From: Candidatus Aenigmatarchaeota archaeon
Lineage (GTDB): Archaea; Aenigmatarchaeota; Aenigmatarchaeia; Aenigmatarchaeales; Aenigmatarchaeaceae
Direction: 5' to 3'
Assembly: GCA_043802485.1 (NCBI GenBank)
Contig: JAZDKZ010000006.1
Coordinates: 64,001-128,000, forward strand
DNA length: 64,000 nucleotides
Positions 1-11,754 of this stretch are shown here, piece after piece. The notes below the pieces were generated by a model. The model was given only the letters and a program-made list of their open reading frames with translations, was not told the DNA's origin and ran no database searches. Each line of letters begins with the position of its first letter. The stretch's first letter is position 1. The position numbers were made by a program, and so were the translations under genes.

Positions 1-1029
1 TACTCTTGCGATGACTACCAGTTCAAGCCGTACGGCGAGAAGGCCTACACAAAGCTCACAGGTTGCGGTCACAAGGGAGAGAGCGACATGAAGAACGGCA
101 AATTGCTATGGCGTGTCGAATGGGGGATGCTCTGGGCTCACTGGAAAATAAACTTGGAAGGCGCTGGCAAGGAGCATTTCATGCCGAGCGGTTCGTTCTG
201 GAGTGCTGGCGAGGTCGCTGAAAAGATATTCGGCTGGCCGGAGCCTTATCCTGGAAAGAACTACATACAGCCTTACGAGTATCTGACGATATCAGGCAAG
301 AAGATGTCTGCTTCTGTTGGCAATGTCGTTTCCACATGGGAATGGCCAACGTTCGCTCCGGCGCAGATACTCAGGATGATATTTCTGAAAAAGCCGAATC
401 GTGTGAGGGACTTTTCATATGAATATATTCCAAAGTACATGGACGAGTTCTACAGACTGCAGAGGATATATTTCGGCAAGGAGGAGGACGACAGGGAGGA
501 ATTCTCCAAGAGGCTCTATATGATGAGCGAGGTTTATGTGCCTGATAAGATGCCTGCGCAGATACCTTTTGAATATGCTGCCATGGTATCTCAAATGGTT
601 CCTGAGAAAAATTCTTTAGAAAAGGCTGTGCAGTTATTCAGGGCTACAGGTCATCTTGGCCAGGATTATGACGAAGCCAGAATCAAGAAGATTCTGAGCA
701 TGGCAAAGAACTGGTCTGACAGGTACGGAGGCGACAGCTACAAGATAAAACTTATGGAAGAGCCGTCAAGGGAATTTTTGGAAAATTTGAGCAGCGACCA
801 GAAGAAAGCGATAAAGATGCTGGCCGAAGCGCTTGCCGAAGACTTTTCAGAGAAAGAACTTTATAATAAGATTTTTGACATAATCAAGGAGACTGGCATA
901 AAATCAAAGGAGTTCTTTGGAGCAGTTTACAGCATCCTCTTAGGCAAGCCTTGGGGTCCCAGGCTAACTCCTTTCATATTGATAATCGGAAGAGAAAGAG
1001 TAAAAAATATTCTGGACAAGGTTCAATAG
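1..1029 (+). CDS. lysS: class I lysyl-tRNA synthetase (5' part outside window)
   Basis: Frame open from base 1; GKLLWRVEW, GAGKEH, KKMSASVGN (KMSKS-type) and C-terminal GPRL motifs. Confidence 0.95.
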   Translation, partial: YSCDDYQFKPYGEKAYTKLTGCGHKGESDMKNGKLLWRVEWGMLWAHWKINLEGAGKEHFMPSGSFWSAGEVAEKIFGWPEPYPGKNYIQPYEYLTISGKKMSASVGNVVSTWEWPTFAPAQILRMIFLKKPNRVRDFSYEYIPKYMDEFYRLQRIYFGKEEDDREEFSKRLYMMSEVYVPDKMPAQIPFEYAAMVSQMVPEKNSLEKAVQLFRATGHLGQDYDEARIKKILSMAKNWSDRYGGDSYKIKLMEEPSREFLENLSSDQKKAIKMLAEALAEDFSEKELYNKIFDIIKETGIKSKEFFGAVYSILLGKPWGPRLTPFILIIGRERVKNILDKVQ

Positions 1030-1748
1030 CCGAACCTTCTCTGCCGTCTGCTGTACTCTTTGACGCATCTTATGAGGTCCCTTTTGGTAAAGTCTGGCCA
1101 GCATTTTTTCATGACTATGAGCTCTGCGTAAGCGACCTGCCATGGCATGAAGCCGGATATCCTCTTCTCGCCTCCGGTCCTTATCAGCAGGTCTATGTCG
1201 TCCTTCACCAGCAGGTTGTCCTTTATCGTTTTTTCAGTGACTGTGACAACGCCTGTCTCCAAAGCTTTCTTGGCTATCTTCTTTACAGCCTGCGTGAGCT
1301 CGAACTTGCCGCCGTAGGCAACAAGAATATTGAAGACCCTTCTGTTGTACTTTTCAGTCTTTTTCATTATCTTGCCCATCACTTTTCTCAAACCCAAGGG
1401 CAGTTTTGTCAGGTCTCCGACAAACCGCATTCTTATCTCATACTTGTCCAGAAAGCTCTTCTTCTCGTTCTCTAGCTTTTCTAGCTCTTTCTGGAAAAGA
1501 CCTAGAAGGGCATTGACCTCCATTTTGGACCTGTTCAGGTTTTCAGTTGATAGGGCGAAAACAGAGACTTTGGGTATCTTCAAATCGACGCACCACTCGA
1601 ACAATTGCTCCAGCTTCTCAGCTCCGAAAGAATGCCCTTGCCAGGGCTTTAGGCTGTGCTTAAGGGCCCATCGTCTGTTAATGGGGTTTTACTAAACCTT
1701 TCCATCCAGGATGACGCCCAAGTGACTAGGTATTGCTGTTGCCTTCAA
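1023..1748 (-). CDS. uppS: cis-isoprenyl diphosphate synthase (UppS family); two exons, 1748-1700 and 1678-1023, 234 aa after splicing
   Basis: TTG start at 1748 behind GGGTGG; exon 1 reads MKATAIPSHLGVILDG, exon 2 reads NRRWA...GH..GA, followed by FALSTENLNR, AYGGK and DLLIRTGGEKRISGFMPWQ motifs. Confidence 0.92.
1679..1699 (-). other. candidate 21-nt bulge-helix-bulge intron in uppS mRNA
   Basis: RNA reads AUGG AA^A GGUUU AGUA AAACC CCAU UA^A CAG: 4-bp helix AUGG/CCAU, two 3-nt bulges, 5-bp intron stem; contains in-frame UAG UAA; canonical cuts give GAU GGA AAC AGA (DGNR). Confidence 0.88.
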
Positions 1749-2634
1749 ATAAATACCACCCTATTTTTGTTCTTTTCATTATGCCAGATTTGACTAATAT
1801 GTGCAAATAAAGCAATATAGTGTTTCTGTGCATTTTAACATTATATTTTTTCTCTATATAAGTTTTCAACTCCCTGAAATTCAGATTTTCAGGATACGAA
1901 CCTCTTAATTTGCTATAAAGCTCTTTCAAAATTGGCGCTTTGGCGTTAGCCCTTACAGGGAACAACTTAATTAGTTCTTCTATATCTGTTTTTCTATTTC
2001 CCCTGATTATTTCCAGTTTAGTCTTTTTAGGACCTTCAAGATTCTTCAAGAAGAAACCAAAAGATTTGCTATAGAAACCGTACTTCCATCTTTTCGACCA
2101 TCTTTCGAACTTTCTTTTGAAAAGCTTAACTCTGAGTTTGTTTTCCTTTAGAATATAGACCATTTGATCCCTTAGCTTCTTACTTATCGATGTAAATTCT
2201 ATTGTTCCGTCCAACTTCACAGAGCCGTCAAAAATCAATGCTGATGAAACAAATGATATCTTGTATTTATTGCCTCCCTTCATGATTTCTTCTGGTATTC
2301 TGACTATGCTCCCTTTCTTTCCATAGGGAAACCCTAGGCTGTGAAGGTATGGTATCAGATGTTTATTGCCTATTCTGAACCTAAAACCTCCCTTTAGAGG
2401 TTTTATTGAGCCTTTCTTACCTGTTATCTCCTTTACCCATTCCGAGATCAACTTTACATTCTCAAACCATTCATCCGTCAATTCGAAATAACTAGAATAA
2501 TAGTGGTGACCATTCCACATCTTTTTCTGCCTGTAAATAGTGCCGTCTGTGGCAAGGGCGCCGCACAGCTTGCATATCGTAATTCCTATATTTCCTTCAT
2601 GGATTTTAGAATTTGTAAGGGAAAAACCTTCCAT
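1726..2634 (-). CDS. free-standing double-motif LAGLIDADG endonuclease with C-terminal winged-helix-like region
   Basis: Motifs LCGALATDGTI and FVSSALIFDGSV; own start and stop; AT-rich; 3' end overlaps the uppS start. Confidence 0.8.
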   Translation of the reverse strand: MEGFSLTNSKIHEGNIGITICKLCGALATDGTIYRQKKMWNGHHYYSSYFELTDEWFENVKLISEWVKEITGKKGSIKPLKGGFRFRIGNKHLIPYLHSLGFPYGKKGSIVRIPEEIMKGGNKYKISFVSSALIFDGSVKLDGTIEFTSISKKLRDQMVYILKENKLRVKLFKRKFERWSKRWKYGFYSKSFGFFLKNLEGPKKTKLEIIRGNRKTDIEELIKLFPVRANAKAPILKELYSKLRGSYPENLNFRELKTYIEKKYNVKMHRNTILLYLHILVKSGIMKRTKIGWYLFEGNSNT

Positions 2635-2732
2635 GAGAACTTTATTACATTCTCTGCTTAAATCTGTTTTTCACCAGAATAATAAAGGAAATTAAAAAGT
2701 TAAAGTCGTTTTATTTAGAAAAGATAAGCCGT

Positions 2733-2951
2733 CTAGAACCTTCTTGGCTTTTTCTTTGCGAAACAATCTCTACAAAATACAGGCTTACCTTCGGTCGGCT
2801 TGAATGGAACTTCACATTCCTGGCCGCATTCCGAGCAAACAGCTTTGTGCATTTCTCTTGGACCCCTGTCGAAACTGGGTTTTCCTCTGTTAAAGCCGCC
2901 GCCACTTCCACCTCTGTCTCCGCCGAAGCGTCTGTCTCTATCGAATGGCAT
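2733..2951 (-). CDS. small CxxC-x17-CxxC zinc-ribbon protein with Gly/Arg-rich N-terminus
   Basis: REMHKAVCSECGQECEVPFKPTEGKPVFCRDCF. Confidence 0.9.
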   Translation of the reverse strand: MPFDRDRRFGGDRGGSGGGFNRGKPSFDRGPREMHKAVCSECGQECEVPFKPTEGKPVFCRDCFAKKKPRRF

Positions 2952-10852: not shown

Positions 10853-10881
10853 AATACCACTCTCAATGGTAAATAAATTAT

Positions 10882-11754
10882 ATGTTTAATGTTTTTAATC
10901 AATCTCTAGACGATAAGATGAGAAATTATAGCATAAAAGAGTATAATGAGGTTCTTGAGCTTAGAAAGAAACGATTAACATTCAGAAAAATCTCTAAGAT
11001 TTTGGGAATACCTATGAGTACCATATATATGTGGACTAGAGGCTCTTTGCCTATGAAGCATTCCAAAAAACATAGAGAACACAGAATAAAAAACATAAAA
11101 ATGATTAATGAGAAAAATAGAGGATCAAGAGAAGAAAAATACAATAATTTAAAACGGAAAATTGATACTAATTTTGCGTTCGTCTTAGGTTCTGTTTTAG
11201 GTGATGGTTGCATTAGTTTTACTAAGCGCAATGGTGGTCAGGTTACTCTAATTACTAAAGATAAGGACTTTGCTTTAGATTTTAAGAAATCGTTAGATGA
11301 ATGGAGTTTAATGAAATCTAAATTGATATATTATAGAAACGTATGGCAAGTATGGTCTTATTCTACAGTTATTGCAAAATGCCTAAAATATTATAACCTT
11401 AGCGATATTTTCAGAACAGATGAAAACATTAAATGTTCCTTTCTAAGAGGTATATTCGATGCTGAAGGTAGTGTTGATGTTAAAGGCAAGAAGATAGTTT
11501 TTGCTAACACATCTACAGAAATAACAGAAATTACTAAAATATTATTGGAAGATATTGGAATAGAATGTAAAGTTTACAATAGATTCTCAAATACCAGATA
11601 TATAGAAGGCAGGAAACTTTTTCCTGGCACATACTTTGTAATTCAGATAGGCTCTAGAGAAAATTTGAAAACATACCATGAGAAAGTGGGTTTTTCCATA
11701 AACAGAAAACAAGAAAGATTGGATAAGATTATAAAATCTTATAAGCCTCTTTGA
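10882..11754 (+). CDS. free-standing HTH-LAGLIDADG endonuclease
   Basis: N-terminal HTH (LTFRKISKILGIPMSTIYMW), VLGSVLGDGCI and FLRGIFDAEGSV; AT-rich. Confidence 0.88.
   Translation: MFNVFNQSLDDKMRNYSIKEYNEVLELRKKRLTFRKISKILGIPMSTIYMWTRGSLPMKHSKKHREHRIKNIKMINEKNRGSREEKYNNLKRKIDTNFAFVLGSVLGDGCISFTKRNGGQVTLITKDKDFALDFKKSLDEWSLMKSKLIYYRNVWQVWSYSTVIAKCLKYYNLSDIFRTDENIKCSFLRGIFDAEGSVDVKGKKIVFANTSTEITEITKILLEDIGIECKVYNRFSNTRYIEGRKLFPGTYFVIQIGSRENLKTYHEKVGFSINRKQERLDKIIKSYKPL

Follow-up and report, generated by a model that had tools for sequence, protein, structure and literature searches.

The uppS gene of a Candidatus Aenigmatarchaeota archaeon, a core gene of lipid synthesis, is split by a 21-nt BHB intron and preceded by a free-standing gene for a predicted LAGLIDADG endonuclease. 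We interpret this cassette, with a probability of about 0.7, as an archaeal counterpart of the collaborative homing known from phages, with an intron spliced by the host: the enzyme would cut intron-less uppS, and the intron would block self-cutting. The window is the entire stretch of DNA analyzed, 64,000 nt long, and belongs to the genome under study (G000); other G numbers denote genomes of the same phylum, and L numbers denote fetched loci. The locus comprises the following features:

2655..2662, minus strand: TATA-like box, 20 nt 5' of the endonuclease ATG
1726..2634, minus strand: predicted two-motif free-standing LAGLIDADG endonuclease gene (family A), 302 aa, with a C-terminal winged-helix-like domain
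2545..2547, minus strand: codon for Asp30, the acid of LAGLIDADG motif 1, which is the same in 8/8 family-A sequences
2227..2229, minus strand: codon for Asp136, the acidic residue of motif 2 (Asp in 7/8 and Glu in 1/8 family-A sequences)
1756..1761, minus strand: GGGTGG, Shine-Dalgarno-like, for uppS, encoded by conserved Gly-Trp/Cys codons at the endonuclease C-terminus
1700..1748, minus strand: uppS exon 1, TTG start, 16 codons plus 1 nt
1679..1699, minus strand: BHB intron of 21 nt, without an ORF and with two in-frame stops, inserted in the Asn codon of DG-NRR
1023..1678, minus strand: uppS exon 2, cis-prenyltransferase, PF01255
1656..2673, no strand assigned: putative span of the mobile cassette, bypassed in a single contig from a co-occurring relative

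Unspliced, the G000 uppS reads DG-K-V-stop-stop, the two stops breaking the frame after 16 codons. When deletions of 10-44 nt were tried around the site, only a 21-nt deletion, in four sliding positions, restored DGNRRW, and the spliced product comes to 234 aa. The BHB geometry sets the intron at 1699..1679. Positions 1705-1702 pair with 1684-1681 to form a 4-bp central helix, the two bulges measure 3 nt each, the inner stem has 5 bp and the outer helix is relaxed; predicted cuts following the second base of a bulge restore the frame. The fold signal of this intron taken alone is modest (z -2.1), and a BHB-plus-frame scan of the whole 769 kb genome yielded 121 hits, mostly chance-like; uppS was the sole obviously repaired conserved protein, judged by eye, in the best 70 of these. 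The argument for the intron therefore draws on the repaired reading frame of a conserved motif, in the single uppS copy found in the genome, and on covariation across homologous introns. In the latter analysis, 98.6% of 70 exon-intron cells were paired compared with 88.9% after shuffling (0 of 500), values that lean favorable given that the set consists of 10 related, chosen introns from which the structure itself was derived; one central exon-intron pair is CG in six introns, UA in three and UG in one. An assembly artifact is ruled out by the presence of the same site in 14 other loci together with the covariation. The insert is thus confirmed by comparative sequence analysis as an archaeal BHB mRNA intron with predicted splicing, and it interrupts the most conserved uppS motif. 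The genome encodes the tRNA-splicing endonuclease EndA (C7:89220-89780) and many tRNAs with introns.

The uppS gene was found in 319 of the 371 genomes of the phylum, and 13 of the 371 matched a pattern designed to detect insertions at DG|N. Direct inspection added two intron-bearing genes, with the intron 11 nt upstream (G004) or 60 nt downstream (G140) of DG|N, for a total of 15 genomes with uppS micro-introns, at three sites. All 16 tabulated loci (14 genomes and 2 metagenome contigs) have a broken frame when unspliced and regain the motif on splicing; the central helix has 4/4 pairs in 13 of these and 3/4 in the other three. The downstream site, at the GA|K codons 60 nt past the first, holds an intron of 52 nt in G150 (L104), of 29 nt in G138 (L102) and G143 (L103), and of 32 nt in G140 (L180), so that three uppS genes (G138, G143 and G150) contain two introns within 60 nt. 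Introns at an identical site can be dissimilar, as in G038 (13 nt) and G040 (23 nt). No long, ORF-holding intron with the same start was detected in the 371 genomes by a search that is blind to other starts. Apparent uppS breaks in G287, G299 and G358 turned out to be regular-expression mis-flags in intact genes. In the uppS tree, genera g1 and g11 group with families f24 and f16, apart from most of f1, the family to which they belong, a placement suggestive of hidden paralogy or of gene exchange.

The 302-aa protein gave only a weak Pfam match to LAGLIDADG (E 0.0066, below the cut-off). Its predicted structure (pLDDT 88.4, pTM 0.86) adopts the alpha-beta-beta-alpha-beta-beta-alpha fold with two LAGLIDADG helices, and Foldseek matched the model to PI-PfuI (E 1.1e-10), I-DmoI (3.7e-7) and I-Tsp061I, with WhiA ranking fifth (E 1.5e-7). 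Both domain search and the model indicate a winged-helix-like domain in the C-terminal 80 residues. The acids that end the two motifs of family A and would bind metal (D30 in 8/8 sequences, D or E136 in 8/8) align with D149 and E250 of PI-PfuI, which we take to be the catalytic residues. Fold and profile firmly place the modeled protein among monomeric LAGLIDADG endonucleases, cleavage itself being a prediction. The gene diverges with pN of 0.15-0.36 against pS of 0.61-0.81. A search of viral contigs for relatives of the endonuclease found none.

Several other LAGLIDADG genes were noticed in G000. A second free-standing HTH-LAGLIDADG gene (window 10873-11751, plus strand; PF14528, E 2e-19) is flanked by, and touches, a Pus10 gene that is divergent and an RNA-methyltransferase gene that is convergent, and no intron was seen in the adjoining ends of these two neighbors. 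Two LAGLIDADG ORFs (C5:12594-13271 and C6:174554-175282, both minus strand) have 3' ends running into tRNA-like sequence, and a distant LAGLIDADG plus winged-helix relative (C1:127743-128962, plus strand) is split by a frameshift. Judging from the translations, apparent LAGLIDADG inteins reside in a CDC48-like ATPase (C5:32605-36264), MCM (C3:13138-16293), a HerA-like ATPase (C6:254996-257584) and a PHP nuclease (C7:56588-59044).

The uppS TTG (1748-1746) lies inside the endonuclease ORF, 7 nt after GGGTGG (1761-1756), and the two ORFs overlap by 23 nt. The original observation of a LAGLIDADG ORF that shares the orientation of uppS, contains its ribosome-binding site and TTG, and overlaps it by 23 nt was borne out in full; the endonuclease stop was likewise correctly placed ahead of the intron, ending at 1726, at a distance of 26 nt rather than about 27. 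The endonuclease ORF begins at the uppS start position of the intron-less relative G003, in which the same 8-mer as the TATA-like box of G000 lies 20 nt 5' of the uppS ATG. From these two observations together, it appears that the uppS promoter was taken over, such that the TATA-like box at 2655..2662 is probably the former uppS promoter now driving the endonuclease. The GGGTG(G/C)-7 nt-TTG arrangement recurs at the end of the family-A ORF in all seven loci listed, including the relic in G132, and its location within the last endonuclease codons implies that the endonuclease probably gives uppS a new start. Comparison with relatives shows an endonuclease gene that occupies their uppS start position and supplies uppS with a putative Shine-Dalgarno sequence and TTG from its last codons. 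A small treble-clef zinc-finger gene (PF23477; window 2733-2951, minus strand) lies 5' of the cassette in G000, and its counterparts lie 5' of uppS in G003 and 5' of the family-B endonuclease in G038. A sigma-70 promoter scan of the locus was disregarded given that the host is an archaeon.

Across the phylum, locus comparisons show that endonuclease genes and uppS introns tend to be found together, with a patchy distribution among close relatives. A co-oriented LAGLIDADG ORF lies immediately 5' of uppS in 10 of the 15 intron-bearing genomes, with a relic in one and none in four, compared with a single adjacent LAGLIDADG gene among the 139 intron-less loci examined; the anticipated association across related genomes is thus present, in counts that include non-independent kin (G138 and G143 are nearly identical, effectively one event). 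A Fisher test was set aside on account of this kinship and of a wider screen for carriers than for controls. The intron-less set takes in every hit from the order and from families f24 and f16, together with sampled loci from other families; 134 of these loci have at least 900 nt upstream, and five are second gene copies. The screen of these loci combined Pfam with a pooled profile and with the four endonuclease families; a very divergent family could have escaped it. The remaining 170 uppS-bearing genomes were screened by pattern only. A LAGLIDADG gene in G109, two genes off and on the opposite strand, was not counted as adjacent.

Intron-bearing uppS genes are accompanied by family A in G000, G063, G123 and G080 (where it is frameshifted), by family B in G038 and G040, by family C in G138, G143 and G150, and by family D in G004. 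Copies were found in 4/371 genomes for A, 2/42 for B, 3/70 for C and 2/42 for D, every one directly upstream of uppS; these are four divergent families of predicted endonucleases, each found only beside this gene. The two family-B enzymes are 51% identical. All three family-C loci have the second intron, at the same site as in G140, and family D in G004 is paired with the intron 11 nt upstream of DG|N. Comparison of family-D and family-A profiles was negative (probability 1.8%), and Pfam detects only the HTH in family D, for which the LAGLIDADG call comes from the motifs and ESM Atlas (feature score 0.90, TM 0.72-0.82). The sole exception among intron-less loci is G011, where an intact family-D HTH-LAGLIDADG gene (L041, 535-1575) lies directly 5' of uppS. 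In G132 (L100), a family-A gene survives only as its final 25 codons (E 5e-9), this being the segment with the uppS ribosome-binding site and TTG. No adjacent endonuclease was found at the intron-bearing uppS of G121, G133, G140 and G296, the last on a contig that offers only about 530 nt upstream; for G140, a family-C neighbor had been predicted from the site-2 intron. The layout of family A plus intron appears again on metagenome contigs L089 and L090 (near-identical) and L091, and L092 ends inside the gene; L087 and L088 duplicate G123 and G080 and were counted once. Intron-bearing alleles are dispersed through the uppS tree, and most of them have sisters that lack the intron. The divergence of family A roughly parallels that of uppS (48-74% vs 47-89%), from which it follows that long co-descent explains part of the association.

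A replacement tract is apparent in G150, which carries family C rather than the family A of G000. Its uppS is 60-67% identical to those of G148 and G149 over exons 1-2 and 90-96% identical right after intron 2, whereas G148 and G149 are 93-100% identical to each other throughout. About 164 nt of G148 are swapped for about 1,550 nt in G150, between flanks that are 95% and 96% identical. The exchanged segment includes the promoter, the endonuclease gene, both introns and the exons between them, and its right edge coincides with intron 2; it is clearly a foreign tract by these comparisons, sharply bounded as homing would leave it. A similar pattern, albeit mosaic, is seen between G138 and G144. 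The polymorphism tract expected around the site was accordingly evident in G150 against G148 and G149; at the G000 locus itself, no co-conversion tract relative to G001 or G003 was resolvable in the assembled genomes, with G003 62% identical over exon 1 and 70-81% elsewhere, values that fall inside the 57-83% spread of a control pair. In run X1, which may be the source sample, one contig from a relative of ~90% identity, for which the letters between both sides of the joint are not given, joins 1655 to 2674 and skips the endonuclease gene, exon 1 and the intron; in run X3, which comes from a different study, the piece from the relative breaks off at 1655, and the endonuclease is represented by exact pieces. 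The single X1 contig is a hint that carrier and non-carrier alleles coexist.

The route that we propose begins with cleavage of intron-less uppS by the monomeric LAGLIDADG enzyme at or near the DG-NRR codons. The intron would split this cut site and render the carrier chromosome immune, and the host EndA would remove it from the uppS mRNA. Repair of the break from the carrier allele would copy the intron, exon 1 and the endonuclease gene into the cut allele. Once targets were exhausted, the enzyme would decay, as the frameshift in G080 and the relic in G132 may illustrate, and the intron would be left behind, possibly the present state of G121, G133, G140 and G296.

Homing could also proceed without any contribution from the intron, immunity being conferred by the enzyme's own insertion at the uppS start or by exon polymorphisms, with the intron hitch-hiking in the co-conversion tract. 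This is the mode described for T4 free-standing endonucleases in the available text of PMC2988022; its best evidence here is G011, with an endonuclease gene and no intron, and it gains from the location of the endonuclease gene, which fills the old uppS start, and from the low identity of exons 1-2 in G150 to the sister allele, sufficient for immunity unaided. Such a mode nevertheless leaves unexplained the presence of the intron in 10 of the 11 endonuclease-bearing genomes, the second intron that family C has as its own every time, and the end of the G150 tract at that intron; we consider it the main rival, yet unlikely.

Even less credence is given to two readings that dispense with present cooperation in selfish spread. 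The protein might be a domesticated DNA-binding protein, such as a WhiA-like regulator of uppS, or a splicing helper, so that the link to the intron would serve the host. The LAGLIDADG plus helix-turn-helix architecture, the WhiA match and the purifying selection on the gene are in line with this possibility. WhiA-type domesticated LAGLIDADG proteins, however, have lost the catalytic acids, and their presence is stable and vertical. Family A does not fit this type, as it keeps both motif acids and is rare and patchy; four divergent families at one place, the existence of a frameshifted copy and a relic, the persistence of introns without endonuclease in four genomes and the foreign tract in G150 also speak against host service, which is thus very improbable. 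Comparably small odds attach to shared ancestry alone, that is, insertions that hit one hotspot independently, or what is left of an old composite intron whose ORF has moved out. These genomes do contain several LAGLIDADG genes and many tRNA introns, start and end features are common to 11 of the 14 site-1 introns (the exceptions being the G038, G040 and G296 types), and archaeal rRNA introns can shrink through ORF loss, according to the accessible part of PMC2738675. Against such an origin stand the dispersal of carriers among intron-less sisters, the lack of a long intron with this start in 371 genomes, and the recent replacement in G150 that brought both parts at once.

Returning to collaborative homing, we tentatively entertain the further idea, doubtful as it is, that free-standing LAGLIDADG enzymes give rise to BHB micro-introns besides spreading them. 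Repair of the cut might occasionally insert a short fold-back with a 3' arm reverse-complementary to the four exon bases preceding the break, which would yield, in a single step, an allele that the host can splice and that resists cleavage. Hints of such intron birth come from the dissimilar introns at one site in G038 and G040 beside 51%-identical family-B enzymes, and from the different intron sites associated with different enzyme families. If true, archaeal mRNAs and tRNAs would have a general means of gaining introns.

How short BHB introns reach new sites is an open question, which the uppS set would allow to be tested directly, since it comprises four enzymes, introns at three sites and natural pairs of plus and minus alleles. 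A trans-acting endonuclease would account for the mobility of an intron too small to encode anything, and the joint travel of enzyme genes and introns suggests how introns can spread into archaeal protein genes. On the practical side, genes split by introns, like uppS, get mis-annotated as truncated, and the uppS-linked enzymes are new candidate meganucleases.

In the literature searched, which took in few subscription papers and no supplements, whose intron tables could bear on novelty, there is no description of a uppS intron or of a BHB intron's pairing with a free-standing endonuclease. The uppS intron resembles the archaeal cbf5 pre-mRNA BHB intron, which is crenarchaeal and in another gene; in the available portion of that report, the origin of the cbf5 intron is called unclear, and no adjacent endonuclease is named (PMC2738675). 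A 2026 preprint on Asgard tRNA introns, likewise in its accessible part, finds no general arrival route and leaves homing unmentioned (10.64898/2026.10.13.758758).

The archaeal intron- or intein-encoded enzymes PI-PfuI, I-DmoI and I-Tsp061I have the fold, the two motifs and the aligned acids in common with the uppS-linked protein, but their genes lie within the intron or intein rather than outside it, and the C-terminal winged-helix-like domain is an addition of the uppS-linked protein. The T4 free-standing seg and mob endonucleases, described in the available text as capable of intronless and trans homing (PMC2988022), are similar in intergenic insertion, use of a host promoter, placement of the downstream gene's expression signals in the endonuclease ORF, and co-conversion; they differ in being GIY-YIG or HNH enzymes that are mostly independent of introns, whereas the uppS enzymes nearly always have an intron alongside. 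The closest parallel in arrangement is F-CphI of cyanophage S-PM2, a free-standing endonuclease encoded beside a psbA gene that contains a group I intron without an ORF, for which collaborative homing was proposed, with the intron protecting and the enzyme mobilizing (PMC6083498, PMC3984707); cleavage of the intron-less allele, blocked by the intron, is the defining experiment, as given in the accessible text of PMC6083498. At both loci, a conserved gene with an ORF-less intron is next to a free-standing endonuclease gene. In contrast to the phage genome, the Endo VII motif and the group I ribozyme of the phage cases, the uppS unit resides in a cellular archaeal chromosome and combines a LAGLIDADG enzyme with a 21-nt, putatively host-spliced BHB intron, which is not of group I, and a single gene is associated with several families of enzyme and several sites of intron insertion. 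The uppS locus contributes four families of enzymes, introns at three sites of a single gene, a relic and a tract with clear bounds.
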